From assembly GCA_965197475.1 (NCBI GenBank), contig CBDANF010000003.1, positions 2,112,001 through 2,176,000 of the forward strand: 64,000 bases of DNA, written 5' to 3'. Positions 8,056-55,949 of the stretch are shown here, one piece after another. The notes beneath the pieces were generated by a model. That model was not told the DNA's origin and searched no databases. It saw only the letters and a program-made list of their open reading frames with translations. The stretch is from Candidatus Poribacteria bacterium. Its GTDB lineage: Bacteria > Poribacteria > WGA-4E > WGA-3G. The position numbers were made by a program, and so were the translations under genes. Position 1 is the stretch's first letter; the number at the start of each line of letters is the position of its first letter.

Positions 8056-8125
8056 TACTACATGTGTATCCTAATTTTTCAACCTCTTAGCGTTAAAAAT
8101 CCTAACAAAAATTAAAGGATACAAA

Positions 8126-9917: not shown

Positions 9918-10007
9918 ATTCGTTATTTGTAGTGGAATTTGCTGCTACGTCATGAAAATTGTATTAGGAAAACGTAATTTCCCATAATAATATAATTAGA
10001 CAAAAAT

Positions 10008-10036
10008 TTGACTCGTCTAATTAAATATACTATACT
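10008..10036 (+). promoter_or_regulatory. Putative sigma70 promoter giving a leaderless methyltransferase mRNA
   Basis: TTGACT (10008-13), 17-nt spacer, TATACT (10031-36); ATG 7 nt downstream with no Shine-Dalgarno. Confidence 0.5.
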
Positions 10037-10043
10037 TTTGCCA

Positions 10044-12078: not shown

Positions 12079-12102
12079 ATTCACAACAGTACGGTCCTCA
12101 TT

Positions 12103-31001: not shown

Positions 31002-31044
31002 AGGTATTAAATTCCCTTTAGCATAATGTATACGAAAATAGTAA

Positions 31045-33249: not shown

Positions 33250-35679
33250 TTACTGCTTAACAATCGTAAGGGGAAGGCTTGTTGATCTGCCTGCACCGTC
33301 AATACATGTCAATTCATGCTTTCCAGCAATAGGGGTTAAGAAAGTCGGTTCTACTGCTTGCCCCTTAAAAACAAGTTCACCGTTTAGAAACCAGAAGATC
33401 TCCTGCGTATCACCCGAAACTGAAGCAGCTAACCGAATTTTTTGATACTCTGGCGGAATGTTAGCACGGATATGATAGACAGCATCACGTGCTGGAGACA
33501 GAATAACTGGATGAGTGCCAGCAAGAGGACGTGTGCAATCAGCATTATGTGCGGGAAGCCGGGACACACCAAATCCGTTTGCATCCAACCAAGTCGCAAC
33601 CGCTGCAGGCCACACCGCAATCGTCTCTTCACGGAAATGTTTTCCGGGTCTGCACGATGAACAGAGGCGTTCGCCTGTAGTTATATCTACCTGTATGCTT
33701 TTATGTATGTGACACTCACGGACGGAAGAAACGCCTGGGATATATACATCGGATATTGAAGTTAGGCAATGAGGTGACAGTGGTAGACCTGTGAGGGCAC
33801 AAACCAGACGCGTTTTGAGGTTGACTGGTTCGGTAAACCACTGATGCGCCTTTTCTCCAGATAGTGTTGTGAAAAGAGCGAAAAGAATAGGTGCTGCGGC
33901 TTCAGAACCGCTAAGAATAGGGACTCCAGTTCCGTTGAAATTGCCGATCCATACGCCGATAGTTAGTTCTGGTGAATAACCGATACTCCACGCATCTCTG
34001 TGCCCATAGGAGGTTCCCGTTTTCCACGCCACCTTCGGCATAGTGCCAGTTACTTCAAAAGATTCAGGAAAATCGGGGCGTTTTAAGGTCGTCAACATTT
34101 CCGTGATGACCCAACTGGTCTCAGGTCGCAGTAAGCGCGATACAGATGCAGAAACAGATGCCCCACCTCTTTTCTCATTACCTGCAGCTCTGTCTACTAT
34201 TAATTGATACGGTGCAAACTCACCCATATTTGCTAAACCTGCGTAAAGATTTGTCAGTTCAAGTAGATTAACACCACATCCGCCAAGCACAAGCGAAAGT
34301 CCATATTCCACTTGATCGGAGAATGTGGAGATTCCCGCTTGTTGTAGGAGACCGTAAAGTTGACTTTCTCCCAATTTGGCATAGAGATTGACGGCGGGAA
34401 CATTAAGGGAGCGCGCTAATGCCTCTTGTGCTGTAATATATCCTGTGAATTTTCCATCGAAATTCACAGGGGAATAGCCGACATAATCAACGGGCACATC
34501 AAATAAAAGTGTTCGTGGGGTAATTATTCCTTTATCAATTGCAAGTGCATAGATAAAAGGCTTGAGCGTTGATCCGGGGGATCGTAAAGCAAGTGTGCCG
34601 TTGACTTGTCCTTCAGATGCTTTATCGAAAAAATCATGTGAGCCGACCATGGCAAGCACTTCACGGGTTTTAGTATCTATAATGACAACTGATCCTGTTG
34701 AGACACCTTGTCCTTGTAGTGGTCGCAAGTGTTCACGTAAAATACGTTCAGCAGTGTCTTGGTAGTGTTGATCAATTGTTGTGTGTATCCGCTGATTACC
34801 GACATGTTGAGATACTTGAGAAGGTTGTTCGTTGACAAGGAGGCGGGACAGATGCGGAGCCTTGAAAGGAAGCGAGTATCGTTTTTTCGGGATTGGCTCT
34901 TGTCCTGCTTCTTGCAGCTGTTGTTTAGATATTTTCCCAGCGTCTTTCATGCGTTGCAATACCTTTTTTCTTGCCTTGCGCGCACGTTCAGGAAAGCGAT
35001 CAGGACGCAATCGTTCCGGTGAATTTGGTATTGCTGCTAAAAGTGCGGCTTCTCCAAGGCTAAGCGCACTTTGCGGTTTATTAAAATAGAGACGTGCAGC
35101 TGCACCTGAACCGACAATGTTCCCGCCATAAGGTAACATATTGAAGTAAAACGTTAAAATCTCCGATTTCGTGTAGGTCAGTTCCAGTTGAAATGCTCGA
35201 AACATTTCGAAAAGTTTATTCGGCAACGTGCGATTCTTCGGTTCCATAAGCCGGGCAAGCTGCATTGTAATTGTAGAACCACCCCGTACGATTTTACCTG
35301 CTTTAAGGTTATCAAATGTTGCCCCTGCAAGTGAAACAGGGTTGATGCCCCAATGATGGTAAAACCACCGATCTTCATAAGTTAACATAGCAGTTTGGAA
35401 TCGAGGGGAGATGGCATCAAGAGAGGTTTCAGGCAATCGCCACATGTCATCGGGTGCTGTGAAAGCACGGAGCCATTCACCGTTTCTATCAAGCACTACA
35501 GTTGATGGTGGAAGTTGGAGTTTTTCCGTAGACAGTGGAAAACACCAGTTGGCGAGTGCGAAAAAGCAGAACGGAATTAGAGGTAATATAAAAATATACC
35601 ATCTTTTCCGTACGATTTTTGCAAATTTGAGATATGGGAGCGTTCGCAGATGGGAAAGACTAAGTTTCGTCAGTTTCAT
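33250..35679 (-). CDS. pbpC: Penicillin-binding protein 1C
   Basis: EDRWF, GGSTITMQLAR, SxxK (GSTLKP), SLN, KTGTS, C-terminal BiPBP domain; next to the alpha-2-macroglobulin gene; start uncertain (ORF track 35763). Confidence 0.95.
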   Translation of the reverse strand: MKLTKLSLSHLRTLPYLKFAKIVRKRWYIFILPLIPFCFFALANWCFPLSTEKLQLPPSTVVLDRNGEWLRAFTAPDDMWRLPETSLDAISPRFQTAMLTYEDRWFYHHWGINPVSLAGATFDNLKAGKIVRGGSTITMQLARLMEPKNRTLPNKLFEMFRAFQLELTYTKSEILTFYFNMLPYGGNIVGSGAAARLYFNKPQSALSLGEAALLAAIPNSPERLRPDRFPERARKARKKVLQRMKDAGKISKQQLQEAGQEPIPKKRYSLPFKAPHLSRLLVNEQPSQVSQHVGNQRIHTTIDQHYQDTAERILREHLRPLQGQGVSTGSVVIIDTKTREVLAMVGSHDFFDKASEGQVNGTLALRSPGSTLKPFIYALAIDKGIITPRTLLFDVPVDYVGYSPVNFDGKFTGYITAQEALARSLNVPAVNLYAKLGESQLYGLLQQAGISTFSDQVEYGLSLVLGGCGVNLLELTNLYAGLANMGEFAPYQLIVDRAAGNEKRGGASVSASVSRLLRPETSWVITEMLTTLKRPDFPESFEVTGTMPKVAWKTGTSYGHRDAWSIGYSPELTIGVWIGNFNGTGVPILSGSEAAAPILFALFTTLSGEKAHQWFTEPVNLKTRLVCALTGLPLSPHCLTSISDVYIPGVSSVRECHIHKSIQVDITTGERLCSSCRPGKHFREETIAVWPAAVATWLDANGFGVSRLPAHNADCTRPLAGTHPVILSPARDAVYHIRANIPPEYQKIRLAASVSGDTQEIFWFLNGELVFKGQAVEPTFLTPIAGKHELTCIDGAGRSTSLPLTIVKQ

Positions 35680-35692
35680 CGGTAGTGTTATG

Positions 35693-35732
35693 GGGAAGAG
35701 TAGAGGGAAGAGGAAAACCCTCCTACTCTTCC
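35693..35732. other. Intergenic hairpin between the macroglobulin gene and pbpC
   Basis: GGAAGAGTAGAGGG ... CCCTCCTACTCTTCC imperfect inverted repeat. Confidence 0.45.
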
Positions 35733-35784
35733 AGCTTGCCCTATGAGTTTGGGCATAGAACAATATGTATGAATCTAATTACAA

Positions 35785-35920
35785 CAGGACTTACGCAAAT
35801 TGAGTAGAAAAGGCAGAATACGCGTGTGGTATTCTGCATGATATTGGCCTTAAAAAGTCGTTATTTCGGTATTTTAACCCCCTTATCAAGGGGACTTTTG
35901 AACCTATTGCGTAAGTCCTA
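35785..35920. mobile_element. MITE copy 1 (14-bp TIR CAGGACTTACGCAA, 5-bp TSD TACAA)
   Basis: CAGGACTTACGCAA...TTGCGTAAGTCCTA, flanked by TACAA at 35780-84 and 35921-25; homologous to 42855-42977. Confidence 0.85.
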
Positions 35921-35926
35921 TACAAC

Positions 35927-38900
35927 TTACTCAATGACTTTGAGTTTACCGCTACCAGCGACAGAAGATCTCGCTGGATCATACATAGCTTCTGCGGAAA
36001 CAGGCGGTAAGGTAAAGTTTCCGCGGGTCACGGCGCGAAGTGCATAGTGGAATTTCCGTTCCCGTTGACGCGGGAAAGTACCAAAGAAGATCAACCGATC
36101 ATCGCGAATATCAACGTAATCCGGTTTGAAATTCTGCGTTTTCAACCATGGAATTCCTGCACGCGATGCTAACCTGGCATTCTCAATCTCAAAACCTGCT
36201 GGCAACATATCTACAACAACTACATTTTCAAGGTTTGATGTCAGTGCTTTTACAGTAACTTCTGCAATTACCATATCCCCATGTCGAAATTCATTATCAT
36301 AAGGCATTCCATCTTGTTTAAGATAACGTCGGCGCACCTCCAAATCCCGATCATACTCCTCAATAAAGGAATCACGCCGGATTCCGAAGGCTGACCAATA
36401 GTAATAACAACTCCCTTCGCCTTCAATAGCAATTTTCACTTGTGCGCCGTCCCAATCTGTATTCGCTAATCGAACCGAAGGCGTTGTTGAATCAAAATCA
36501 GTAAGATGCGTATCATTTAGGGTAAGTGTGCCGGTGTAGTTGCCATCCATTTTCTTCTTAAGGATTTTGCCGAGCGCGAGAAAGGCGAATGCGTTCTCTT
36601 GAGTCGTGCCCCATCGTTTTCTTTGAGACGCAGCGTCGCTAAGATAGCTCACAAGCATCGGAATTGACGGATGGTTTTCGTTGACCTCAGCGAGTACGTC
36701 AAGGATAATCGCTTGCGAACGCACAGGCGAATCGAAGTTTGTACCTGTCTGGCGGCTCCCTCCATTTTGAGATGAGATAGAAATAGGCAGCATAGAGAGT
36801 GCTGTTTCCAACTCACCACTGAGCGCAAAGGCACCCGCCAATTGAAACTGACTATAGTCCGCGAGACTACTGAGGAGGTTATTTTTAAAGTAGTGCATCA
36901 CGCCTTTTTCTGGTTGTCCTGCTGCTGCTAATACATAGCAGGCATAGACCGCACGCTCAACTTTGTGTCTATTAGATTCATTAACGGACTTTTGGTCGCT
37001 TGATATTTGTTTCGCTTGCTGTCTTAGTCCATCAAGCAATCCGTTGTAGACACGATCAGAGACTTCGTAGCCTGCTTTACGAGCTTCAACCAGAAAGTGA
37101 GAAGCATAAACACTACTCCAGTGATTGATATAACGCCCGCCCGGCCAATACGAAAAATGGTTTTGAGAGGTGAGCATACCTTCAAGTTTAGCGATACCAG
37201 ACGTAATGTAGTAATCAACGCTTTCATCCGAAACGAGTTCAGGATCAACAGTTCGCGCAACATCACTAAAATAGAGCAGTGGAAATACTCGACTTGTTGT
37301 TTGCTCAAGACAACCGTAAGGATAACGAAGTAGGTAACGAATCCCACCGGCAAACTCAATTGCAGGAAACGGAGATACAGTGAGGGTAAAGTCGGAGGAC
37401 TCTGCTATCAAATTGGAAGGCAAGACGAAATCCGCAGCATTTTCCGCGCTGACCACTCCATGCCCTGTCTCAGTTATCGGCGGCGCAGCAGACCGAAGGG
37501 GAAGTTGAACAGACATCTGTGTGCTTTCGTTATTCCCAGAAGCAGACAACGTGAAAATAGCTTTACCGATTGAATCATGAGTAAGCAGATCAAATATAAG
37601 TTGTTCCTCTCTTCCCGCTGCAATCTGGACATGCTTTCGAAGGTGATTTTCTTGAGCCTGCGGTTCTGATTCTGTAGTCCCAGGTAGGAGTCGAACATCA
37701 CCGGTCGCCTTAATTTCTACATCAAATTCTCCATCCTTTCCAGTTCCGTTGTGAACACTAACGGGGAATTGGATGCGATCACCACCTGAAAGGAAGCGTG
37801 GAAATGTCGGTGTTAATACCACCGGTTCCCGAACTTTCGTGAATTTCTCTGCGGAACCGTAGTACGCGTTGGAAAAAGCGACAGCCATTAATCGTATGGT
37901 ACCGTTAAACTGCGGAATGTGGAAACTTGCCGTGCCTCTTCCATAACGATCTGTTTTCAGAATTCCTGACCAGAGCGAGACCGGTTTCACACGCATGACG
38001 CTGGCGGTGTTGAGGCGTTTAGCACGACCACCAAGGTTCGCGGATGCATCACCACCAATGCTGGAATCGCCACGCACAATCTCAATCTCCGGTAAAATTG
38101 CGGAGTAGAGGTCATAGGCGCGTGTTTTCAGCCCACGCTGACGGTAAAAGTAACCGTGGGGATTAGGCACCCGAAAATCGGTTAACTGAAGTATCCCTTC
38201 ATCAACCGCAGCAATGGTAACATGGGAGAACGCGCTTTGTTGCCCACGCACACGGAACTTAACAGTTACATCGCTATTCGGACGAATCTCCTCAGGCGCA
38301 TCCAAATCAATGCTGAGACGATTAGGTTCAGAGTCCAATTTCAGCGGAATGATGCCAAAAGCACGCGCAGGCGCGTGTTCTTCCAACGAATCTGTTGACC
38401 GAATCAAAGTTCCGGAGAGGTATATGTTCGGTTTATAGCTGTACTTGACCGGGATCCTCAAACTCGCTGTATTGCCTTTTAAGTTAACAGTTCGGTAACT
38501 TAAAATCTTTTCCCGCTCTATTGTCAATAACAGTTTGCCGGGGAATGGTGCTTTAATCTGAAGTTTCGCAGTCTGTCCGGGTTGATACGCTGGTTTATCT
38601 AACGTCATCTCAAGCAGGCTCGGATTTTCCATGGACAAAGGAACGGATCCCCAACCGGTAGTTTCCATTTTGAGTTCCGTTTTCGCGCCGGAGGCGGTAT
38701 CTTCCAGATGTACACGATATTCGCCATACTCAGAAGGTGTAAAAGTGAATGTCCCCATCTCTGCTGCTGAAACAAATTGATGCGATTCCAAGGAAGTAAT
38801 TTGTTCATCCGACACATATTCATAACGACCTCGCGAGTTGCGGCGGAGTATAGTGTTCCAATGGACTTTATGAACAGTGAGTACTAAGTCACGTCCGGCT

Positions 38901-41371
38901 ACTGCATTTCCATTTTTGTCCACGGCAATATAGTTAAAAGAAACATTTTGATTAGGTTTAATAACCCCTGAACTTGAACGTTTGATGCCGACATAATGTG
39001 AATACGGATGAATAACAACGCGATATGAAGCCGTTACGGCTCTGCCACCAGGTTCGTTCACTGTTGCTGTTAGTACCCCATTCAACTGAGAAGGTGCTTT
39101 GACAGTGTCCGGCAGCAGGAATTTATAATGCGCTTTACCTTCAGCATCAGTCTTGGTATCTTCTAAAGTAGTCCGTTGTTTCTCAAACGGCATAGTACTC
39201 GAAAAGTGGAATGAACGCCACTTTTCCACTGGAACATACGGTACTGCTTCAAGCATGTAAGACGCTGTTACTTTTCGGTTTACAGCAGGCGGCCCGAAAA
39301 GATTAACAGCAGAAACATCCATTCCGACCTCAACGCCTAAGTCATACTCAGATTTGTCTGCCGTAACAGAGACTTTCATCCGGTCGGGCATAAACTCTTC
39401 CACCTGAAATCGTGAACGACCAATCTCCTTGTCAGCAACGCTCATCTTGGCAACATAACTTCCTGTCTGTGCGTAAGCCGGTAACGGGATTGTTATCTCA
39501 CAACCCCCGCGTCTATCCGTATTTTGACGAAATTCATTTATAACTCTACCATCTGGTGCTAAAATCTGAATGTGGGTTGGAAGCGACGGAGGTGTTGCAT
39601 TTTGCTTTCCACGGACGATTGCAGCCAGTGCTACCTTCTCACCAGGCCGATAAACCCCACGACTCGTGTAGAGAAACGCCTCATAGCCTGCTGTTAAATA
39701 AGCAGAACCGCCAACATTAAAATCTCCAGTGGAAAGTTGATGTCGGTTTAGCTGAATGAAGGATAGGTCATCCCCTTTCTCCACTGTCAGCATAAATGGG
39801 GTAAAACCCTCAGTTTTTTGATCAACTGAGGGAAACTTGACGAAGCCTTCCCAATTTGTTTTTCCAGTCAGTAGCGTTTGGTTGTTATCGCTGACTAACT
39901 TAACTGTGGCTTGTGAAACAGACTTTAAGTTGGTAAGCGAATTGACCCAAACCCATAACTCATCCCCTGCTCTTTTAGTAATGATCCCGAGGTCCGTCAA
40001 CATCACCCATTGTGTCGCACGAGCCCGATAACTCTTTGGGTCTCGAACATTAACTTTAAAAATACCGACATGTTTATCATTCAAGTACTGTCCAAGAGTA
40101 ATATACGTACGGACTTCCTCGTTCAGTTTTGAGGGAATATTAAGTGTTTCGGAATGAATTGGCTTCCCTAAATTATCTGTCCAAGCACTCCAATTTCTTA
40201 GTTTAGACACATAAACAAGGTTGTTGCCGAAGACTTTTTCTATTCGCACTTCAACATTATGTACATTTATCGTTGCCAAACCGAGATTCATATTTTGATT
40301 TCTGGTAAGAAAGAAACCATTGCCCACAAAACGGATTTGCGGAGGCACATCTGGGATTGTAAGTCGGACAGAATGTGACTTCTTTAATACGGAACCGTCG
40401 GCAGCTGTCAACCCTTCCTGAACTGTGACTTCATATTTACTACGTCGCTTGAAATCACCATGGATTTCAATCCCACCGTATCTGGTAATAATCTGAGTAT
40501 CTACCTCTGGTTTGATACGAATATACGGTTGCACCGTGTCAATTGGAATGCGGGAACTAAAACGGAGGGCAATATGAGGTTTTCCAGAGCCTTCTTGGAC
40601 ATTGGCATACGTAACACCGAGTGTGTCTCTGCCGGTTAAGGTCATTGATTTAACGTTCGCCTCTTTCAACCCGATCTGCCCACCTGTACATTTAAACCTT
40701 TTCTCAATTCGCACCTTGAGATTTTGGTCTCCGAGCAGACGCGGAATCTCTTCAGTTTCTAATTTAATCTCCCTAGCAATTCCATTTTGTGGTTGAAGCG
40801 TATAAGGTATATCAACATCCTCTTGAAGTCGGATAGACAGGTTTGCGCGTAAATCAGCAATATTGACCGGATAATTAAATGTTAACTTCCCAACAACCTT
40901 TGCGTGTGTTTTAGTGTATTTGAATTCAAGGCTTTTCTTTTGTACGCGGAAGGGTTCAGTTGAAAAAGTGAATTTTCGATCACCGGTGATGACAAACCCA
41001 AGGGGGCTCTGGTGTAATTTGGGGGAAAGTTCCACAGTATAACTTGCGGAGGGGGCTAAGGGGCTTTCTAAAAAGAAGCGGATTGTATCGCGCGCTATCC
41101 AACGGGCGACTCCCTTAACAGTGGGGGTAAATTGAATCGCACGATCCGGTAATTCAGTGTTAATCACTGAATTATCAATTATCGGTTCCGAAAACGTAAA
41201 CGTAAAATCAACCCATTGCGGAACTTTTTCGCCTTTCGGCGTAAAGGATTTAACGGTGACGCGCGGCTTTGCATCCGATATCAAACTATGGATATAGAGT
41301 GACCCGATAATCAAAATGAGCAAAGAAAGAAGGGCAACAACACCTGTTAAAAGTTTTTTTGATTCCATCAT
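35927..41371 (-). CDS. yfhM: Bacterial alpha-2-macroglobulin (YfhM-like)
   Basis: RGVYRPGE, VEEFMPDRM, AAVDEGILQLT, thioester motif YPYGCLEQ, DMLPAGFE, DIRDDR, AEAMY. Confidence 0.95.
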   Translation of the reverse strand: MMESKKLLTGVVALLSLLILIIGSLYIHSLISDAKPRVTVKSFTPKGEKVPQWVDFTFTFSEPIIDNSVINTELPDRAIQFTPTVKGVARWIARDTIRFFLESPLAPSASYTVELSPKLHQSPLGFVITGDRKFTFSTEPFRVQKKSLEFKYTKTHAKVVGKLTFNYPVNIADLRANLSIRLQEDVDIPYTLQPQNGIAREIKLETEEIPRLLGDQNLKVRIEKRFKCTGGQIGLKEANVKSMTLTGRDTLGVTYANVQEGSGKPHIALRFSSRIPIDTVQPYIRIKPEVDTQIITRYGGIEIHGDFKRRSKYEVTVQEGLTAADGSVLKKSHSVRLTIPDVPPQIRFVGNGFFLTRNQNMNLGLATINVHNVEVRIEKVFGNNLVYVSKLRNWSAWTDNLGKPIHSETLNIPSKLNEEVRTYITLGQYLNDKHVGIFKVNVRDPKSYRARATQWVMLTDLGIITKRAGDELWVWVNSLTNLKSVSQATVKLVSDNNQTLLTGKTNWEGFVKFPSVDQKTEGFTPFMLTVEKGDDLSFIQLNRHQLSTGDFNVGGSAYLTAGYEAFLYTSRGVYRPGEKVALAAIVRGKQNATPPSLPTHIQILAPDGRVINEFRQNTDRRGGCEITIPLPAYAQTGSYVAKMSVADKEIGRSRFQVEEFMPDRMKVSVTADKSEYDLGVEVGMDVSAVNLFGPPAVNRKVTASYMLEAVPYVPVEKWRSFHFSSTMPFEKQRTTLEDTKTDAEGKAHYKFLLPDTVKAPSQLNGVLTATVNEPGGRAVTASYRVVIHPYSHYVGIKRSSSGVIKPNQNVSFNYIAVDKNGNAVAGRDLVLTVHKVHWNTILRRNSRGRYEYVSDEQITSLESHQFVSAAEMGTFTFTPSEYGEYRVHLEDTASGAKTELKMETTGWGSVPLSMENPSLLEMTLDKPAYQPGQTAKLQIKAPFPGKLLLTIEREKILSYRTVNLKGNTASLRIPVKYSYKPNIYLSGTLIRSTDSLEEHAPARAFGIIPLKLDSEPNRLSIDLDAPEEIRPNSDVTVKFRVRGQQSAFSHVTIAAVDEGILQLTDFRVPNPHGYFYRQRGLKTRAYDLYSAILPEIEIVRGDSSIGGDASANLGGRAKRLNTASVMRVKPVSLWSGILKTDRYGRGTASFHIPQFNGTIRLMAVAFSNAYYGSAEKFTKVREPVVLTPTFPRFLSGGDRIQFPVSVHNGTGKDGEFDVEIKATGDVRLLPGTTESEPQAQENHLRKHVQIAAGREEQLIFDLLTHDSIGKAIFTLSASGNNESTQMSVQLPLRSAAPPITETGHGVVSAENAADFVLPSNLIAESSDFTLTVSPFPAIEFAGGIRYLLRYPYGCLEQTTSRVFPLLYFSDVARTVDPELVSDESVDYYITSGIAKLEGMLTSQNHFSYWPGGRYINHWSSVYASHFLVEARKAGYEVSDRVYNGLLDGLRQQAKQISSDQKSVNESNRHKVERAVYACYVLAAAGQPEKGVMHYFKNNLLSSLADYSQFQLAGAFALSGELETALSMLPISISSQNGGSRQTGTNFDSPVRSQAIILDVLAEVNENHPSIPMLVSYLSDAASQRKRWGTTQENAFAFLALGKILKKKMDGNYTGTLTLNDTHLTDFDSTTPSVRLANTDWDGAQVKIAIEGEGSCYYYWSAFGIRRDSFIEEYDRDLEVRRRYLKQDGMPYDNEFRHGDMVIAEVTVKALTSNLENVVVVDMLPAGFEIENARLASRAGIPWLKTQNFKPDYVDIRDDRLIFFGTFPRQRERKFHYALRAVTRGNFTLPPVSAEAMYDPARSSVAGSGKLKVIE

Positions 41372-41439
41372 AAAATGTCTCCTAAAGTTGGCATGTTATT
41401 CAAATCTCTGAAGGTCATTTTTTCATTCGTAAGGTATGT

Positions 41440-41455
41440 AGCAATTTTCGTGCCA
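41440..41455 (-). promoter_or_regulatory. Sigma54 (-24/-12) promoter of the macroglobulin-pbpC operon
   Basis: Minus strand TGGCACGAAAATTGCT, an exact match to TGGCACG-N4-TTGCW, about 70 nt upstream of the ATG. Confidence 0.75.
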
Positions 41456-41709
41456 AAATTTGCGTTTTCTAACGGTATCCCGGAATCGTTTAGGTTTTGT
41501 GTTTTGCCCTCCTCTATCTACAACACGCAACAAACCACGTGAGGACACTCAAATCAATGGGTTATAGAATGTGTATCTTGGTTCCTGACGTTATCTGATC
41601 TTCAGGTTTATCCTTATAAACAACCAAAAATAATATGTTCTGTTATTAACTTATGCTCCAAACTCAAAATGGGATCTTAAGCAAGGAACAAGGGTAAACA
41701 TTTTACCAT

Positions 41710-42801
41710 AGACATTATAATGAATTAAATAGAAGGAGTTTCATAACGCCAGGGTCTGAAGTTTAGGCGAAAATTGTGTAAACCACAACAGGTTTCCATA
41801 ACTAAATCACAAAACCCTTTCTTCCAATTCCTGAGTTTATCTTTGACAATGAACTAAATCACAAAACCCTTTCTTCCAATTCCTGAGTTTATCTTTGACA
41901 ATGCGGCATCTTTTGACACCACTAATCGCATGTTCAACGCGTATGCGTATAGACGCTATCTTTCTATTGTTTTCTTTTTCTTCATTCGTCCGTTCTCTAC
42001 CTCTCGGTTTTTTCTTCGGTTGAATGATGTTTATATCCGGGAGAACGAAACCCTGAAAACCGGTATCTTGGGACAATGTGCTACCCTGTGGCACACAATA
42101 GCCCACCATATCGGCTATGTGTTTGTCATGATATCTCCCTTCAAAGAAGGTGTCAATAGGACAACTTTGCAGGTCTCATTGATAATCAAATTATTTTTCA
42201 CTGTATGACATTTCTTTTTACCACTATAATAACCCTTTTGAGTTTGTGGGTCTTTGGGGCATCGTATCGGGCGTTCGGTGCTATCATGAAAAAAATGTTC
42301 TCCTTCTTGATTTTGAGTTGATACTTTTGATGGAGCACATATAGGGGCGGGGTCTGTTTCCCGAGATGGCAACTCTCCAAGTTCTGCTAATGCTTTGTTC
42401 AATATCGATAAAAGCAAGTGAATCCATCTATTAGCAAGAGGTTGAGACATGCCAAAGAGCGCACCGAATAGCACTTGTTTCGGTGCTTCACGAAGGTAAA
42501 TCAGTATAAATAGCAACATATCTTCAGGTGTATCAAAACGACTATTTTTATACGGTTTATATCTCCGTTTTTTGCGCGGTTTTCCTGCAAGGGTATGTGT
42601 TTGAACATACTCTAAAAAACATTTAGTAAAATAAGGTGATAGTTCAGTCCAATCTTCTAAGGTATATCCGGTGAGGGACAGGAGCGTATCAGGTTTGTCC
42701 CTTAGTTCTTGAAAACTTATCATGAGTTAGCCTCCTATTGTCCGATTGTAATAAGTATAATAGAGACTAACCAAACGGACAACTAATTAGTTATAATGTC
42801 T
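41710..42801 (-). mobile_element. IS5-family (ISL2-like, HTH + DDE_Tnp_4) element, inactivated
   Basis: IRs AGACATTATAA...TTATAATGTCT flanked by 3-bp CAT repeats; transposase pieces DSTERPIRCP..YYSGKKK.HTVKN, QDTGFQG, IRIRVEHAISGVKRCRI; frameshifted. Confidence 0.9.
41800..41903. repeat. Exact 52-bp tandem duplication in the transposase 3' end
   Basis: AACTAAATCACAAAACCCTTTCTTCCAATTCCTGAGTTTATCTTTGACAATG twice (41800-41851, 41852-41903). Confidence 0.95.
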
Positions 42802-42854
42802 CATGTGTAAAAATAAACACACTTATTTTAAAATAGCAAGGAATCCAAATACCT

Positions 42855-42977
42855 CAGGACTTACGCAAATTGGGGAGAAAAAGGAAGTATTGGACTTAAA
42901 AAGTCGTTATTTCGGTGTTTTTAACCCCCTAAATCCCCCTTATCAAGGGGATTTTTGAACCTATTGCGTAAGTCCTG
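42855..42977. mobile_element. MITE copy 2 (TIR CAGGACTTACGCAA, 5-bp TSD TACCT)
   Basis: CAGGACTTACGCAA...TTGCGTAAGTCCTG, flanked by TACCT at 42850-54 and 42978-82. Confidence 0.85.
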
Positions 42978-42980
42978 TAC

Positions 42981-44150
42981 CTAAAACCAGAATCGCGACA
43001 TCAAAATAAGCTGATTCGTCCCTTCAAGTTGTCTTAACATACTTTTGCTGCTGATATCCTCATCAGGTTTTCGGTCAGCGTTAGGCAGATTTGCCCAATA
43101 GAACAGTGAAATCGCGCCGTTTTCCATAAAATTATATTGCGCGATAAATGTCAACCGCTTACCAGCATCACCTAAAACAGTTCTGTCCGGATCAAACAAA
43201 CCGTAACGGCCTGCTACAGTTAATTGCGGAAGAACACGGTATTTTGCTCCGAAGTAGTATCCCTTAGAATCAACGGCATCGGATGCGAAAGAGGCGACCT
43301 CATCGCTATTTCCAAAGTTGAATTCTCCTTCTAAACTCAAACCGGCGTAAGAGGCAGTTACAAACGCACCGATAAGACGTTCCCACTCTTCACCGGGTTT
43401 TTCAAATATGCAGGACACTCCTGCACGAATCGGACCAAGTTGTCCGCCGAGAGTACCGAGTGCGCCCTTGGCTGTTGCATTGCCAGCGTTGAAAAACGCT
43501 GCGTTGTAGAATGCTTTTCCGAAACTACCACCGAGTTCCAGTCCAACATCTCGTTTATTTGAACCGAGGCCGTAGCCTTCCCGGACAAGGATATTATGAT
43601 CCTTCTGTTTGATGCCGAAGGGTAGCCGAAATTGTCCCACTTTGAAGTAAAGATGTTTTGGAATAGCATCTACTGTGGCGAAAGCATTAAGTGTCGTGCC
43701 AACGTTGTTGGAAAGGGTTAAGCGAACCCGTTCTGAGGCTTGCGCGTTGAACGTCACCTCAGCTTGCATCAGAAGAAATCTGTCAACAGATGAATGGCAC
43801 GAGTTACATCCAGCTACTGTGCCCTCTTCTTCGTCTACATGTGTAGTTTTGATAAAAGCTGTCTGTAGATCAAGTGAGGTTATAAGTTGTTTAACAACCT
43901 CCTTTGCTTCTTCAGTGACAGCATCCATATCGAAATCTTCAGGAAACTCAAAATAGTTCTCTTCAAAAATTTCACCGATCCGATTGCGAGGACCACCACC
44001 TGCTGGGTCAATGTGGCAGAAATTACAGTCTTTGTCTAATTCAGCCGCAAACTCTGGTCGTGCTTCAGCGAAATCTGCCCAAAAAAGAGCTAACGAGAAA
44101 TTTGTTATCAGGGCAAATACCAACAATGCACGGAAACATTTTCGCAGCAT
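42981..44150 (-). CDS. Di-haem c-type cytochrome fused to an outer-membrane beta-barrel (Cyc2-like cytochrome-porin)
   Basis: Signal peptide ending AEA, then RPEFA..CNFCH and a second CNSCH; porin O/P-like KVGQFRLPFG; amphipathic strands; C-terminal Phe (RFWF). Start probably ATG 44150 (ORF track 44198). Confidence 0.8.
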   Translation of the reverse strand: MLRKCFRALLVFALITNFSLALFWADFAEARPEFAAELDKDCNFCHIDPAGGGPRNRIGEIFEENYFEFPEDFDMDAVTEEAKEVVKQLITSLDLQTAFIKTTHVDEEEGTVAGCNSCHSSVDRFLLMQAEVTFNAQASERVRLTLSNNVGTTLNAFATVDAIPKHLYFKVGQFRLPFGIKQKDHNILVREGYGLGSNKRDVGLELGGSFGKAFYNAAFFNAGNATAKGALGTLGGQLGPIRAGVSCIFEKPGEEWERLIGAFVTASYAGLSLEGEFNFGNSDEVASFASDAVDSKGYYFGAKYRVLPQLTVAGRYGLFDPDRTVLGDAGKRLTFIAQYNFMENGAISLFYWANLPNADRKPDEDISSKSMLRQLEGTNQLILMSRFWF

Positions 44151-44293
44151 AGTCCTGTCGTGAAAAGGTTTCATAAACCTACTGTGATATATCTTCAAAA
44201 GCGTACTCCTTTTCTATTGTGTAAAATGCTAGGTTTTACTACGTTCTATCACTATGTGTCAATTTATTTATAAGTTAGGTTGCAGCGGATTAT

Positions 44294-44335
44294 TGTCTGA
44301 ACCAGGATTCACATGATTATCGGATTTACAGGATT
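44294..44335. repeat. Short degenerate ~9-bp periodic (GATT) intergenic repeat
   Basis: TGTCTGAACC-AGGATTCAC-ATGATTATC-GGATTTAC-AGGATT. Confidence 0.45.
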
Positions 44336-44419
44336 ATAGAAGTCGCTCTTACAGAAGCCCCGATGACCGATACTGAGGTGCATAGACTGATTTGAGGCAG
44401 CTATGTAGAAACTGTAAGA

Positions 44420-44806
44420 TCATAGGTTGTTACCCTTTGCAACGATCCCTTGGAAGCCTGCATTAGTCGGTCCTGTGTATCTTTCAATATTAACCCACGC
44501 CATGACGGTAACATCTTTGTCAACAGTGAGTATCTCATGATGGGAAACTTCAACCCAATCGCTGTCTCCGTTCAGCTTCACTGCCATGCCATATTTTCCA
44601 TTAACTAATTTAGGATCCCCTTTCAGTTCTCCATGGTTTTCATACTGTGAATGGTCAATCACTTTACCGTCACCATTAAGTTCATCAAAAGAGATATAAA
44701 GAACGAGTGAGTCGTCAGCTGCATTTAATCCGTAGGCAGAAGATACTACAAAGGTTAGCAACACGAAAAACGTGACAAACTTTACAAAGAGATAGTTAAT
44801 TGCCAT
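44420..44806 (-). pseudogene. Truncated secreted LamG/concanavalin A-like domain protein
   Basis: Signal peptide, LVLYISFDE, DHSQYENHG, GKYGMAVKLNG, TVMAWV; stops mid-domain after IVAKGNNL. Confidence 0.75.
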
Positions 44807-44892
44807 ACAATACCTTCTCCAAAAATAGTTGAATAAATAGGGTCGTCCTAAGGTTGTAACAACTAAACATAACTTAGAAAGGACAATCACCC

Positions 44893-45520
44893 ATGCCTGA
44901 AATTATAGCACTGTTTACTGTTTTTATACCACATTTATCCGCAACGACGACCCGGCAGTTATCCGCTCTGTCATCGCACTGCTTGCGATGACAGAGCGGA
45001 TAACAATGTTAAATATATCTCGCTGGACTGGACAAGGAGGTAGCTACCGCACCGGACAACGCTTTTTCAACACTGTTATCCCTTGGGCTACGATCTGCTG
45101 TATGTTTTTTCGCACACATCTGCTTGATCGTGAAAGTGACTATATCCTCACAAGGACAAAACAATCGTGCCAAAATCGGGCGACTTTACCTATGGTTTAT
45201 CTCGTTTCTTTTCCTCATTGTATGGAAAACGATCCCCGCTTGGTGTTTTAGCCGTGTCCTTAGTGAGCGTCAATCAGCGACGCTCCTATCCAATAGTTAT
45301 GGAGCAAATCTTGCGTGACGACTCATCATTAAATCCGGGCGTTTCAACACAGGAACAGCGCGATGACACTGAGACAGCAGCAAAACTGAAACGCGGATGT
45401 CCAAAGGAAGCCGAAACCGGAACAAGGATGATATGGTCTCACCGATACGCTGAAACAACTTCAAACGATGGTTAAGACGATGCTATTGCAGATTCGCGAC
45501 TTGATCCCACTCCATTAATA
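44893..45520 (+). mobile_element. IS4/IS701-like transposase remnant
   Basis: MPEIIALF...TTTRQLS...LLAMTERITMLNISRWTGQGGSYRTGQRFF and KSGDFTYGLSRFFSSLYGK in shifting frames. Confidence 0.7.
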
Positions 45521-45539
45521 TTTATATTTCACCAAGATA

Positions 45540-46133
45540 TCAATCAAGTTCAGTAATAACATAGTCCATATCTTCAGCTTGAGCGTGACAACTCCAACAT
45601 ATCCCGTCAGAGGCGATAACTTTAAATTCAGCATCTGACGCATTTCGAGTATATTCAATGAATTCCCAATCATTATGGTCTGGATCACTGCCAGCTACCT
45701 TCCGCATAATCGCTATGAGTCCCACGTAGTCTTTATTTGGTCGATATGCTTCTTTTACGACGATGCTTCCATCCGGATATGGGAATTGCTGCTCGCCGTC
45801 AGGTGCGATGGTCACCCGTGTTTGGTTAACGTAAACGTTCTTTGTCCCTCTGTGTGGATCACTGCCTGCAACAGGTGGAATCGGTTCGGCATTTAATTTA
45901 AGCCACTTCTCATAACCTGCTACATCTTCTGGTAGCCCTGGCAGTGCGACAGCGGGTTCTTCAGTTTCCTGGTCTGTTTCTTCTTTAGTTGTTTCCTGAA
46001 CAAGTTCGTCTAACTGTTGTTCTTCTACACAAGACGTGAACATCACGCTGGACATTAGCACAATGGCAATCCCAAGGTAGACATTCAAAAAGTGGCGGAT
46101 GTGTTTTTTGCTTCGCATTATAAATCTCCTCAT
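45540..46133 (-). CDS. Cytochrome P460-family lipoprotein
   Basis: Lipobox FTSC, VYVN, YPDGSIVVKE, IMRK, DWEFIEY, C-terminal CWSCH. Confidence 0.85.
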   Translation of the reverse strand: MRRFIMRSKKHIRHFLNVYLGIAIVLMSSVMFTSCVEEQQLDELVQETTKEETDQETEEPAVALPGLPEDVAGYEKWLKLNAEPIPPVAGSDPHRGTKNVYVNQTRVTIAPDGEQQFPYPDGSIVVKEAYRPNKDYVGLIAIMRKVAGSDPDHNDWEFIEYTRNASDAEFKVIASDGICWSCHAQAEDMDYVITELD

Positions 46134-46406
46134 TTTAACATGCCTTTAGTATATAACAAAAAGGCAATCATAGCAATAATTAATTTATACCATACGTTTC
46201 GTTTATGTTTCAAAATTGAACGCTCAGATTACGAATTGTTTTACATAACCTTGACGTAGCAGAAATTGAAAATTGGGACGGAATTCATTTTTATTTGTCA
46301 TTCCAGTTCTGTTAATGTATCATATCATAATGGAGAATAGAGATTTAAACTGAACACTTCTATATGTCTAAAAGAATAAGTTGGTTTTCGAATAAAGGAG
46401 AAATGG

Positions 46407-47402
46407 ATGCTCAGAAACCTGTTTAAAGGTGGTGATAAAAACCGCACTGAACCGGAAGCTACGGATCAAAAAGAGAATTGGTTCAATCGCCTCAAATCCA
46501 GTTTAGCGAAGACTCGTAACAGTTTTATCTCTCAACTGTCAGGATTGCTTCGGGTTGGTAGAAAAATTGACGAAGAACTGATGGAGGAGATCGAAGAGAT
46601 TTTAATCCAAGCAGACGTGGGAGTTGATACGACTCTGACGCTGATGGATAACGTGAGAGAGACTGTGAAGGAAAGAGGATTAGGCGATTCTTCTGAATTG
46701 GGAACAGTCATAAAAGAGGAAATACTGCATCTTCTGGGAGAAGATGTTCCCTTGAAGTTTGAAGGTGAACCACCTTATACGATTTTAGTTCTCGGTGTGA
46801 ACGGTGCTGGAAAAACGACAACCATCGGCAAACTCGCAAGCCGTTTTAACGCTGATGGCAACCGTGTTCTCGTTGCTGCAGGCGATACATTTCGTGCCGC
46901 GGCGGAGGACCAATTGGCGATTTGGTGCAAACGCGCGCGGGCAGAACTAATTCGCGGCGGGGAACGTGCGGAACCCGCTTCAGTAGTTTTTGATGCTATT
47001 CATGCGGCAAAAAACCGAGAAGCAGACGTTCTGATTGTGGACACAGCTGGCAGACTCCATACCAAAAAACCTTTGATGGATGAATTATCAAAAATCGGAC
47101 GTGTGATGGGACAAGCACATTTAGGCGCGCCTCACGAGGTGCTACTTGTCATTGATGGCACAGTAGGACAGAATGCACTAATGCAGGCTAAAATTTTTAA
47201 CGAGGCAGTGCCGATTTCTGGTGTAGTAGTCACGAAGCTGGACGGCACAGCGAAAGGTGGGATAGTAATAGCGGTAAAAGCCGAACTCAATGCTCCCGTC
47301 AAACTGATCGGCATCGGTGAGAAACTTGACGATTTACGGGATTTCGCGGGGGCAGATTTCGTTGAAGCACTCTTTGCATCAGATGAGACTGAAGGGACGT
47401 AA
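46407..47402 (+). CDS. ftsY: SRP receptor FtsY
   Basis: GVNGAGKTTTIGKLA, DTFRAAA, DTAGRLH, TKLDGTAKGG. Confidence 0.97.
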   Translation: MLRNLFKGGDKNRTEPEATDQKENWFNRLKSSLAKTRNSFISQLSGLLRVGRKIDEELMEEIEEILIQADVGVDTTLTLMDNVRETVKERGLGDSSELGTVIKEEILHLLGEDVPLKFEGEPPYTILVLGVNGAGKTTTIGKLASRFNADGNRVLVAAGDTFRAAAEDQLAIWCKRARAELIRGGERAEPASVVFDAIHAAKNREADVLIVDTAGRLHTKKPLMDELSKIGRVMGQAHLGAPHEVLLVIDGTVGQNALMQAKIFNEAVPISGVVVTKLDGTAKGGIVIAVKAELNAPVKLIGIGEKLDDLRDFAGADFVEALFASDETEGT

Positions 47403-53726: not shown

Positions 53727-55949
53727 TTATTTAGACGGTACATTCCAAAGGAAAATAGTTCCGTCTTGTCTATAATCGTGGCCGCTTATGCTTGCGAGTG
53801 TTTTGCCATCAGGTGCAAACGCCAATGTATGGATAAAGTTTTTATGTCCATCATAGGTTGCAAGAAGGCGGCGGGTAGCAAATTCCCATAGATGAATTTT
53901 ACCGCCCGTATCCCCGCTGGCGAGAATAGTACCATCCGATGAAAATGCTAACTTGCAGACTGCATGTTGGTGTCCACTAATAGTTTCAATAAGGTTTTGG
54001 GTGGCAACATCCCACAAATGTATTTTCTTGTTTCCATTTCCAGTTGCGAGCGTTTTTCCATCAGGTGTGAATGCTAACGCATAAACATTAAAGTTGCGCA
54101 AGTGGAAACGTTCTAACAATCCACCCATTAATCCCTTAGAAATTTTAAGTGCTGCAAGTTGTTCGCCGGTGTTCATATTCCATAAATATATGCGATTTCC
54201 CATACTATAAGCAAGCATTTTGCCATTGAATGTTGATGTCATCCAATACCTATCAATCTTCGTAAAGGTATTCAGATTTTTGGCTTTGAGCGTGTCCCAT
54301 ATTTCTGTTCCATTATTTGTTTGAATAACCAGTTTTTCACTATTTGGTGCAAAAACACCTACGATGTCCCCCCTAAGTGTTGTGCCATCATTAAATGAAT
54401 CAGAAAAACCTCCGTTTAATGTGTCTGGGATGGTGTAGGCGTTTTCCTGTATTCCTGAGGTAATATCCCACACTTCAATATTGCCTCTACTCTCACTGAT
54501 AAGCGTTTTGTTGTCCTTCGCGAATGTTAATGCACGGATATAATTGTCATCTGTGTTGATCGTAATCCATTTGTTGTGTTCATTTGCATTCCAGAGTTGG
54601 ATGTTTCCCGTAATGTCACCGCTTGCGAGCACTTTTCCATCATGTGAGAACACTAACGCCGTGAGTGGTTTTGTATAGCCTGAAGTGAGAGTCAGCAGTG
54701 GTTTGTTGGTACGTGTGTGCCACACATTTACAGTGCCGTTCCCGTTTGCTGTGGCAAGGGTTGCTCCCTCTTGTGATAACACGAAACGTTCAGGGAAAGG
54801 TTTAAACTCATCTAAAACGGGACTGAGTTTTGCTATTTGACGGTGGGTGGCAATGTCCAATAGTGTATAACTATCTTTGGCAATTAGAACGAGGGTTTTT
54901 CCGTCGCCTGAAAATCTTACGGTTTTCGCATCGGGGAACGTAGCGATTTCACTGCGGGCAGGAACGTCCCATATAGCGCAACCATCATACCCTGTTATGG
55001 CGAGGATTTTTCCACCCTTTGAAAACCTTACGTCTTGGACACGGCCCCCTGGAAGTGCCGCGAGTTGTTCACCTATGTCAACATCCCATATTTCAATTGG
55101 TCCTTGGGTATTTCTGCTGCCATTTCTCAAGGGGATCCTGTAGGATATTCTACTCACAAGCGTTTTTCCGTCCGGTGCAAACTCCAATCCCTGATGCCAT
55201 TTTATAGGTTGTTTTTCAAAAAGCGTGTAGCTTTGGCTGTCGTGTCCCAGCGGATATTGGATTGGAAAAGGTATCCTATCATCCATTGTGCGTGGTGTAA
55301 GTGTTATTATTTCTCTGCCGGTTTGTCCATTTTTGATGCTGATTGTGCCATCCTTATTTCCGATAGCAAAGGTAACAACGCCTATGCGATCAACAAAGGC
55401 AGCTAATGCACGAGTCCATACTCTACCTTTGATTCTGATTTTGGAAGCCTTTGGATTGAATGTATTTAGTAATTTTCCAGTGGAGGTATCCCAAAGCGTA
55501 ACTATCCGTTGCCAATTGACTCCTACAAGCGTTTTTCCATCGGGTAAGAATTTCAGAGAAAAAAGTGTGCCTTTGGGAATAGCAAATGTCTGCAAGTTTT
55601 TACCGGTTTTAGCGTCCCAAAGCCGAACGGTTTTATCATCCGCGCTGCTGGCAAGCATCTTTCCATCCGGTGAGAATGCTACATGTCTAACGGCATCCGT
55701 ATGCCCTGAAAGGAAAGCAGTTTCGTCGCCTGTGTTGACATCATAAAGCCATACACCGATAGAGCTTGCTATTGCCAACTGATTGCCATCAGGTGATAGC
55801 TGCATATCATTTAAGATGCCTTTACCGAGACGTGCTTTAGCACCTTCAGGTAAACTGAATTGCGTATAGTCCTGGGCGAAAGAATTCAGTGGATATAGGG
55901 TAAAAAAGATAAATAGTATTAAGAAAATCGAAAATAGTTTAGTCTTCAT
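53727..55949 (-). CDS. Secreted WD40-repeat protein
   Basis: Signal peptide ending SFA, QDYTQFSLPEGAKARLGKG, multiple WD40 repeats. Confidence 0.92.
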   Translation of the reverse strand: MKTKLFSIFLILFIFFTLYPLNSFAQDYTQFSLPEGAKARLGKGILNDMQLSPDGNQLAIASSIGVWLYDVNTGDETAFLSGHTDAVRHVAFSPDGKMLASSADDKTVRLWDAKTGKNLQTFAIPKGTLFSLKFLPDGKTLVGVNWQRIVTLWDTSTGKLLNTFNPKASKIRIKGRVWTRALAAFVDRIGVVTFAIGNKDGTISIKNGQTGREIITLTPRTMDDRIPFPIQYPLGHDSQSYTLFEKQPIKWHQGLEFAPDGKTLVSRISYRIPLRNGSRNTQGPIEIWDVDIGEQLAALPGGRVQDVRFSKGGKILAITGYDGCAIWDVPARSEIATFPDAKTVRFSGDGKTLVLIAKDSYTLLDIATHRQIAKLSPVLDEFKPFPERFVLSQEGATLATANGNGTVNVWHTRTNKPLLTLTSGYTKPLTALVFSHDGKVLASGDITGNIQLWNANEHNKWITINTDDNYIRALTFAKDNKTLISESRGNIEVWDITSGIQENAYTIPDTLNGGFSDSFNDGTTLRGDIVGVFAPNSEKLVIQTNNGTEIWDTLKAKNLNTFTKIDRYWMTSTFNGKMLAYSMGNRIYLWNMNTGEQLAALKISKGLMGGLLERFHLRNFNVYALAFTPDGKTLATGNGNKKIHLWDVATQNLIETISGHQHAVCKLAFSSDGTILASGDTGGKIHLWEFATRRLLATYDGHKNFIHTLAFAPDGKTLASISGHDYRQDGTIFLWNVPSK

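Follow-up and report, generated by a model that had tools for sequence, protein, structure and literature searches.

Can a single outer-membrane protein carry a haem path from the cell surface to the periplasm? This question is raised by a gene at 42981..44150 (minus strand) of a 64,000-nucleotide stretch of a Candidatus Poribacteria genome, hereafter the window, whose product reads as a cytochrome c fused to a porin with two haem-attachment motifs. Proteins of this architecture are known from the Cyc2-type cytochrome-porins, which as genomic markers of microbial iron oxidation are used more widely than any other. According to the parts of the published work available to us, to which all statements from cited papers are limited, Cyc2 proteins are monohaem fusions with shown Fe(II)-oxidase activity (PMC8406198, PMC13692758). 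They are described as strictly monohaem, with a haem buried in the pore that is thought to limit their substrates to dissolved ones (PMC9040806). With modest confidence, we favour the reading that the window protein is a Poribacteria-specific, two-haem derivative of a Cyc2-like fused cytochrome-porin, which would provide a haem route between the outside and the periplasm together with a P460-type lipoprotein. The parts of the gene are as follows.

42981..44150, minus strand: dihaem cytochrome-porin gene, from the list of open reading frames (ORFs) and its translation; 389 aa plus stop.
44061..44150, minus strand: signal peptide, residues 1-30, with a basic n-region, a hydrophobic core and A-x-A; predicted cleavage after AEA.
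43887..44060, minus strand: N-terminal cytochrome domain, residues 31-88, with the family motif P-x-F-A-...-CxxCH-x-x-P-x-G-G-G-x-R-N; predicted local distance difference test score (pLDDT) 71-89.
44013..44027, minus strand: haem-attachment motif 1, C42-N-F-C-H46, from the translation; invariant across the whole family.
42984..43886, minus strand: 16-stranded beta-barrel porin domain, residues 89-389, from AlphaFold2 and Foldseek; L3-type loop (LPFGIKQKDHNILV...) and C-terminal beta-signal ending in Phe.
43782..43844, minus strand: loop L1, residues 103-123, 21 residues between strands 1 and 2; carries motif 2 and is predicted on the extracellular side.
43794..43808, minus strand: haem-attachment motif 2, C115-N-S-C-H119, from the translation; defines the dihaem clade.

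The elements on which the original prediction was built, namely a signal peptide, the start of the mature chain, a KVGQFRLPFG stretch and a terminal Phe, are all present in the translation of this gene. The signal peptide, MLRKCFRALLVFALITNFSLALFWADFAEA, is a typical Sec signal as judged by eye from the translation, and the mature N-terminus reads RPEFAAELDKDCNFCH. KVGQFRLPFG occupies residues 170-179 (window positions 43614..43643, minus strand), and the C-terminal end reads ...SRFWF. The true start may be a TTG at 44198, 16 codons upstream of the start given above, since an AAGGAG ribosome-binding site stands 7 nt before it; the protein would then have 405 aa, which lengthens the n-region of the signal peptide and changes nothing else. 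Against five orthologues, the ratio of nonsynonymous to synonymous substitution rates (dN/dS) is 0.04-0.09, and the gene is therefore under strong purifying selection. The same ratio rules out a decaying gene flanked by insertion sequence (IS) debris.

An AlphaFold2 model run on a 135-row alignment (mean pLDDT 87.0, predicted template modelling score 0.82) contains three short helices in residues 32-84 and 16 beta-strands, assigned by DSSP, that span residues 89 to 388. Foldseek returned 257 matches in the Protein Data Bank (PDB) with E<=0.001 (best E 8.2e-12), the best of them being the 16-stranded porins OmpM1, chitoporin (ChiP), OmpU, OmpT, OprP and Omp32. The description of the product as a cytochrome c fused to a porin is borne out. 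The connection after strand 5 carries a helix and a P-F-G motif and resembles porin loop L3, and G172, invariant among the aligned relatives, lies within the stretch K-x-G-x-F-x-x-P-F-G. Profile searches gave fainter signals. A family profile searched against solved structures found only a weak match of its N-terminal part to 6qvm, a multihaem cytochrome (E 1.4e-4), besides Porin O/P with an E value near 0.5, and the Pfam Porin_4 model reached 18.6 bits, under its cut-off of 27 (E 0.0017). Porin_O_P, one of the models that the original prediction had proposed to search, was not listed in the Pfam scan of the window protein and was found in 2 of 18 members of the dihaem clade at E<=0.01, where Porin_4 matched 7 of 18. 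An NCBIfam scan of the protein gave nothing meaningful.

The model also places the second motif. Strand 1 is LITSLDLQTAFIKT (residues 89-102) and strand 2 is RFLLMQAEVTFNAQ (residues 124-137), the same two amphipathic strands between which the second CNSCH had been placed from sequence, and the motif ends five residues before strand 2. The turns after even strands all have 2-4 residues, and the loops after odd strands have up to 24. The C-terminal Phe of substrates of the beta-barrel assembly machinery (BAM) lies on the periplasmic side. From the short even turns and this terminal Phe, L1 is predicted to be extracellular, so that in the standard porin orientation of the model motif 2 is in the first extracellular loop, in agreement with the earlier proposal.

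Both haem-attachment motifs are highly conserved in proteins of this type. C42, C45, H46 and G51 are invariant in 135/135 aligned relatives, and both CxxCH motifs are kept in 120/120 close homologues (the best 120 of 343), as well as in 60 of 61 further proteins found by a profile of distant dihaem members. Among 188 proteins with the L1 dihaem arrangement, the C, C and H of motif 2 are unchanged in every one, with 12 different residues at x1 and three at x2. The spacing between motifs 1 and 2 is 72-78 residues in this set, and exactly 73 in 155/188. Six representatives at 28-45% identity have motif 2 at the same place. Chance is ruled out as the origin of the second motif, because composition predicts 0.0012 CxxCH per protein and 0/200,000 shuffled sequences contained two (179 contained one). 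To judge from these alignments, both CxxCH motifs are under selection. In 185/185 full-length dihaem proteins, the only invariant Cys, His or Met residues are C42, C45, H46, C115, C118, H119, M128 and H185.

The relatives show from what kind of protein the dihaem form may have arisen. A word-indexed search found 343 proteins, the best 120 of which are at 77-100% identity; five records among those 120 carry an organism name, in each case Candidatus Poribacteria. An exhaustive search of representatives at 50% identity found 371 clusters with E<=0.001. Among the full-length members listed, nearly all are about 340-470 aa long, end in an aromatic residue and have a single CxxCH, at about residue 25-75, and the N-terminal consensus of the family is PxFAARxGxxCxxCHVNPxGGGxRN. 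This shared consensus, together with the length, the aromatic C-terminus and the invariant Gly, places the window protein in a large family, that of the monohaem fusions between cytochrome and porin. A profile built from 40 of these monohaem relatives retrieved 355 proteins, 113 of them new and all of these with exactly one CxxCH; in the monohaem relatives L1 varies in length and has no CxxCH. The full-length proteins collected comprise 219 monohaem members versus 185 with the L1 dihaem arrangement, and the departure from the one-haem state that had been noted for the window protein is therefore shared by a whole group.

Seven organism names are attached to monohaem relatives, covering Kofleriaceae, Myxococcales, 'Deltaproteobacteria', Persicimonas caeni and Eisenbacteria, and all of these proteins are annotated 'hypothetical'. 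With names of this Myxococcota-type, Persicimonas and Eisenbacteria range, the remark that such a protein would be unexpected in a probable heterotrophic symbiont was overstated. A profile of six distant dihaem representatives found 107 proteins, 61 of them new, with four organism names, all Poribacteria; every name attached to the dihaem clade is in fact Poribacteria, among the few records that carry one. ESM Atlas matches fell only in unnamed 'porin family' or 'cytochrome c domain' clusters, Pfam and NCBIfam hold no model for the family, and a tblastn search of plasmids with the monohaem relative P0157 gave zero matches.

In a FastTree phylogeny of 135 rows, 26 dihaem rows and one monohaem row (P0132, which has a short L1) form one clade with a Shimodaira-Hasegawa (SH)-like support of 97. 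A quick IQ-TREE run on 62 rows with the L1 columns removed puts the same rows on one side of a branch, with an SH approximate likelihood ratio of 90. The simplest reading of these alignments is one gain of motif 2 inside the monohaem family and one later loss, in P0132. Four other relatives (P0147, P0194, P0241 and P0256) have an additional CxxCH that precedes motif 1 by about 25 residues, N-terminal and presumably on the periplasmic side, and P0218 and P0233 have C-x3-CH at that position instead. Because of the four extra motifs, haem number is taken to have changed independently more than once in the family.

A conserved partner gene, which the original prediction had missed, stands upstream of the cytochrome-porin gene.

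45540..46133, minus strand: cytochrome P460 / c'-beta family lipoprotein, 197 aa, Pfam PF16694 at E 2.1e-13; lipobox ...FTSC, acidic linker, C-terminal CWSCH.

The aligned copies of this partner share a lipobox (…FTSC or …FTAC), an acidic linker of about 30 residues, a P460 domain and CW(G/S)CH close to the C-terminal end; 29/29 retain the Cys of the lipobox, the CxxCH and K127. In sequence, the PDB entries that match the partner best are cytochromes c'-beta, from M. capsulatus and T. thermophilus, with P460s next. The AlphaFold2 model of the partner is moderate (pLDDT 67), with M. capsulatus P460 as its top structural match (E 0.012). A HMMER alignment to McCP-beta places K127 on Phe61, A141 on Gly82 and H94 on Phe32, and the three partner residues are likewise invariant in the 29 aligned copies. 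The Phe61 position is that of the haem cross-link of P460s (Lys70/78/106), and the Phe32 position is that of the capping residue (both Table 2, PMC11928373). The partner thus appears, from this alignment, to have the P460-defining Lys at the cross-link position, the cross-link itself being predicted. The Gly82 column holds the distal carboxylate (Glu96/Asp102) needed for hydroxylamine (NH2OH) oxidation, and Ala131 in the inactive NsP460 (PMC11928373). The combination of a Lys at the cross-link position, an Ala in place of the carboxylate and a His at the capping position is absent from the six proteins tabulated in that source.

Compared with known cytochromes P460 and c'-beta, the partner shares PF16694, the beta-sheet fold, a CxxCH near the C-terminus and a Lys at the cross-link position. 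It differs in being anchored as a lipoprotein through its acidic linker, in having its gene beside that of an outer-membrane cytochrome-porin, and in the replacement of the distal carboxylate by Ala and of the Phe/Arg cap residue by His94. We propose it as the periplasmic redox partner of the cytochrome-porin. A predicted complex of the mature cytochrome-porin (residues 31-389), three haems and the P460-like domain (residues 58-197) scored 0.00/0.00 against a mark of 0.32, a run without controls that speaks neither for nor against binding.

The link between the two genes extends beyond the window. A scan of species-representative genomes matched 184 stretches, 140 of which encode relatives, and 80 loci were kept. 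By record title, 77 of the 80 are Poribacteria and three are 'uncultured bacterium'; most come from records of sponge-associated genome assemblies. Gene order was read for each locus from called and clustered ORFs. The P460-like gene is the ORF directly preceding the cytochrome-porin gene on the same strand in 68/80 loci, and by tblastn it lies upstream on the same strand in 74/80. The median gap between the two is 48 nt in the relatives versus 1341 nt in the window, measured to the longest possible start of the cytochrome-porin gene, so that true gaps are slightly larger.

These observations suggest how the protein could work. The cytochrome c maturation system would attach covalent haem to both motifs in the periplasm, before BAM folds the barrel. 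Haem 1 would then be lodged within or beneath the periplasmic end of the barrel, where published models of Cyc2 have theirs (PMC13692758, PMC5566968), and haem 2 at the outer mouth, held only five residues before strand 2. Electron hopping, in one direction or the other, could link an external redox partner to haem 2, haem 2 to haem 1, and haem 1 to the lipid-anchored P460-type protein on the periplasmic side. The example of Cyc2 makes dissolved Fe(II), or else another small reductant that would be oxidised, the leading candidate for the outside substrate. In an extended form of the proposal, which we hold to be unlikely, this would be the first outer-membrane beta-barrel with covalent haem on an extracellular loop. 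Its single 39-kDa chain would be a complete two-haem wire and would give electrons to, or accept them from, a Lys-cross-linked P460-type lipoprotein. With three haems in all, this route would be peculiar to sponge symbionts and would join the redox chemistry of small molecules in the periplasm to a partner outside the cell, possibly in the sponge matrix.

Several observations weigh against a two-haem route of this kind. Residues 110-116 of L1 have pLDDT below 50 in the AlphaFold2 model, and it is the strand topology that places haem 2. The invariant His and Met residues of the 185 full-length dihaem proteins include no distal ligand particular to haem 2. From the alignment, M128 and H185 are candidate distal ligands, though not specific to haem 2, because most monohaem relatives keep both (84/105 and 86/105, respectively). 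The partner has Ala (A141) where NH2OH-oxidising P460s have their distal carboxylate, as in the inactive NsP460. In the window, transposase debris lies in the 1341 nt between the partner genes, and for these reasons their co-transcription in this genome is doubtful. Six of the 80 loci have no adjacent P460-like gene: L069 is a 2.2-kb contig with no upstream DNA, L064, L067 and L074 have a Type ISP restriction enzyme gene at the upstream position, L020 has a TnpB-type ORF and L035 another ORF. The maturation genes that the original prediction had proposed to look for across the genome were sought in the 64 kb window, where zero cytochrome c maturation genes were found, a result with little bearing on the rest of the genome.

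The likeness to Cyc2 is also incomplete. Keffer et al. 2021 define Cyc2 by a signal peptide, a single CXXCH, AXPXFAR[Q/K][T/Y] upstream and PXL downstream of it, a length of 365 aa or more and a porin of 16 strands (PMC8406198). The upstream motif served as the screen for the Cyc2 tree, and PXL stands 4 residues after CXXCH (PMC8406198). The window protein has the signal peptide (by eye), the length (389 or 405 aa) and the 16-strand barrel, and has two conserved CXXCH motifs (residues 42-46 and 115-119) instead of one. Two further departures count against a Cyc2-like role. Its upstream stretch, ARPEFAAEL, matches at A, P, F and A and differs at R, Q/K and T/Y, and H46 is followed by I-D-P-A-G-G-G-P-R-N, with Pro at +3 and no Leu. 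The same holds for the absence of any relative named Cyc2, or from a known iron oxidiser, among the HMMER matches listed. Monohaem relatives mostly read P-R-F-A-A-R-T/Y, which is nearer to the Cyc2 motif with one extra residue. What stands of the earlier comparison with Cyc2 is the fused cytochrome-porin with A-x-P-x-F-A before CxxCH; the published definition of Cyc2 does not fit. By analogy, the window protein may work like Cyc2, as a variant of the fused cytochrome-porin kind. We do not file it as a tested Cyc2 member, since the single CXXCH, the upstream motif and PXL are all missing.

Set beside Cyc2/Cyt572 (A. ferrooxidans Cyc2, Mariprofundus Cyc2PV-1, Ghiorsea Cyc2TAG1_1 and Leptospirillum Cyt572), the window protein shares a signal peptide, a short N-terminal cytochrome and a 16-stranded porin in one chain of about 390-450 aa. 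It also has A-x-P-x-F-A at a fixed distance before CxxCH, with the outer membrane as the expected location. It differs in its two CxxCH motifs, in having A, E and L for the Cyc2 R, [Q/K] and [T/Y], in the missing PXL and in its conserved partner, a P460-type lipoprotein. Its family also has P-x-G-G-G-x-R-N after the haem motif, which is not listed for Cyc2 in the part of PMC8406198 consulted. With MtrAB(C), MtoAB and PioAB it would share a haem chain that spans the outer membrane inside a beta-barrel, and a proposed exchange of electrons with the outside (PMC9040806, PMC5566968). In those systems a separate decahaem protein threads a larger barrel encoded by another gene, whereas here two haem motifs belong to the chain of a 16-strand barrel. 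An MtrAB-type complex is ruled out by the single chain, the two haem motifs and the 16 strands, and neither the 64 kb window nor the conserved neighbourhood was found to contain a multihaem gene. The 16-stranded porins (OmpM1, VhChiP, OmpU/OmpT, OprP/OprO and OmpF) are alike in fold (Foldseek E 8e-12 to 1e-8, template modelling score 0.5-0.67 normalised to the target), with short periplasmic turns, an L3-type loop with the P-F-G motif and a terminal Phe. They differ in that identity is 9-15% and no solved porin matched has an N-terminal cytochrome domain or an L1 haem motif.

These comparisons bear on the other explanations of the locus. The protein could be a plain Cyc2 iron oxidase that serves lithotrophic or mixotrophic Fe(II) oxidation, with a second haem that merely tunes potential or rate. 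Its domain order, length (389 aa) and 16-strand barrel are those of Cyc2 (PMC13692758), the A-x-P-x-F-A part of the N-terminal motif matches, and automated FeGenie 'cyc2 [2-3]' calls are tabulated for a hydrothermal-vent Poribacteria genome, calls that are not identifiable with the window gene in the part of the source seen (PMC12482716). We nevertheless regard it as rather unlikely. The protein reads PEFAAEL and IDPAG where Cyc2 has PXFAR[Q/K][T/Y] and PXL, no known iron oxidiser is among the matches listed, and the named clade members are all Poribacteria, from loci that are mostly sponge-associated assemblies. Its neighbour, moreover, is P460-type, whereas the pathway of A. ferrooxidans has a periplasmic carrier of Cyc1 type (PMC7029218). 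That neighbour could instead be the centre of a periplasmic and outer-membrane module for nitrogen-oxide, hydroxylamine or peroxide chemistry, in which the P460-type haem binds a small molecule that enters via the pore and the porin haems supply or remove electrons. The tight linkage of the two genes and the P460 fold with Lys at the cross-link position (K127, 29/29 copies) would fit such a module, for which dihaem peroxidases, where an electron-transfer haem supplies or removes electrons, offer a comparison. P460/c'-beta proteins do bind NO and NH2OH (PMC11928373). Such a module seems improbable to us, given that the distal carboxylate is Ala, as in inactive NsP460, that it gives no explanation of the need for haems in an outer-membrane barrel, and that none of the conserved neighbours (FtsY, a sigma factor, a MarR regulator, an ABC-F protein and alpha-2-macroglobulin) is nitrogen-related.

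The two remaining alternatives deny the electron path itself. If the second CxxCH were haem-free, a disulfide or metal site in a surface loop, the protein would act as a monohaem cytochrome-porin. This would agree with the low confidence of the L1 model and with the lack of a dedicated distal ligand among the invariant residues, and it would be unusual for a loop that carries haem to be brought to the surface as the barrel assembles. Yet the His is as invariant as both Cys (188/188) and every copy has the C-x-x-C-H spacing, neither of which a disulfide would need. Any CxxCH exposed in the periplasm is a substrate for haem lyases, and other branches of the family gained a second CxxCH before motif 1, so that haem gain recurs; a haem-free motif 2 is therefore, in our judgement, very improbable. 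As for an ordinary diffusion porin, whose N-terminal haem domain would be only a plug or a redox-sensitive gate with no electron transfer, the fold does match general and specific porins, and some members have weak Porin_4 and Porin_O_P matches. It is hardly credible all the same, as gating alone hardly explains two covalent haem sites kept down to 28% identity or a conserved haem-protein partner, and the characterised proteins of cytochrome-porin architecture are redox enzymes (PMC8406198, PMC13692758). We therefore retain the two-haem derivative of a Cyc2-like fusion, acting with its P460-type lipoprotein, as the preferred reading.

Mobile elements surround the gene on both sides.

44199..45539, no strand: DNA between the partner genes, specific to the window genome; by blastn only short pieces occur in other loci.
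44988..45475, plus strand: DDE_5 transposase remnants in two overlapping ORFs, Pfam DDE_5 at E 1e-5 and 1e-4.
44420..44890, minus strand: N-terminal fragment of a secreted LamG-like protein, within 44199..45539.
42115..42723 and 41837..42109, both minus strand: DDE_Tnp_4 (IS5-like) transposase, split in two ORFs, between the cytochrome-porin and alpha-2-macroglobulin genes.

The stretch that splits the P460 and porin genes also contains a 47-nt palindrome at 44958-45004. The corresponding interval is occupied by a TnpB gene in another genome (L009) and is likewise enlarged in a further one (L050), and for this reason it looks like an insertion hot spot. The split DDE_Tnp_4 at 41837..42723 is probably a decayed insertion sequence. 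About 93 nt directly after the cytochrome-porin stop (42888..42980) are 83% identical to 35842..35923, directly downstream of the alpha-2-macroglobulin gene, and represent a repeated intergenic element. An Rfam scan of 41000..47000 gave zero matches at E<=0.1, and a promoter and terminator scan did not rise above shuffles (15 promoter-like sites versus 12.4 expected; 2 terminator-like versus 3.8 expected).

Further downstream come the alpha-2-macroglobulin gene (1814 aa) and, after it, a gene for a penicillin-binding protein of PBP1C type (33250..41371 together), a known bacterial A2M-PBP1C pair. The alpha-2-macroglobulin gene lies downstream of the cytochrome-porin gene on the same strand in 72/80 loci, with a median gap of 407 nt. 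Elsewhere in the window, a low-GC stretch at 8001..12100 (0.33-0.38 versus about 0.44 elsewhere) encodes a C-5 cytosine methylase and a HaeII-type restriction endonuclease, beside two ORFs without a Pfam match (8126..9013 and 9246..9917), and was probably acquired as a defence islet. The stretches 28953..33111 and 53727..55949 encode three large proteins of about 690-740 aa with WD40 repeats, with several TPR proteins nearby; eukaryote-like repeat proteins of these two kinds are typical of sponge symbionts.

In the literature searched, which included few subscription journals and had supplementary Cyc2 trees outside its scope, no description of a dihaem cytochrome-porin fusion was found. Where the term 'diheme' occurs in the parts of the Cyc2 and porin papers examined, it refers to Cyc1, CycA or other proteins and not to a cytochrome-porin. 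Papers on Poribacteria and extracellular electron transfer included none on the cytochrome-porin gene, and a literature search found no paper on cytochrome P460 in Poribacteria.

If the proposed route is correct, a second haem on the surface side would make this protein, among known candidates for a haem wire across the entire outer membrane, the smallest, and its comparison with monohaem relatives would be a natural test of the haem number needed to cross the outer membrane. For the annotation of genomes, a sister family that is large (371 clusters at 50% identity) and uncurated may be concealed behind automated 'cyc2' assignments in phyla that do not oxidise iron. Among sponge symbionts, the Poribacteria are a dominant phylum, uncultivated and usually described as heterotrophic. 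The cytochrome-porin is a conserved feature of the phylum, with 140 matching stretches in a species-level genome collection, and its conserved pairing with a P460-type gene suggests that the sponge holobiont has a capacity for extracellular redox chemistry that has gone unrecognised.

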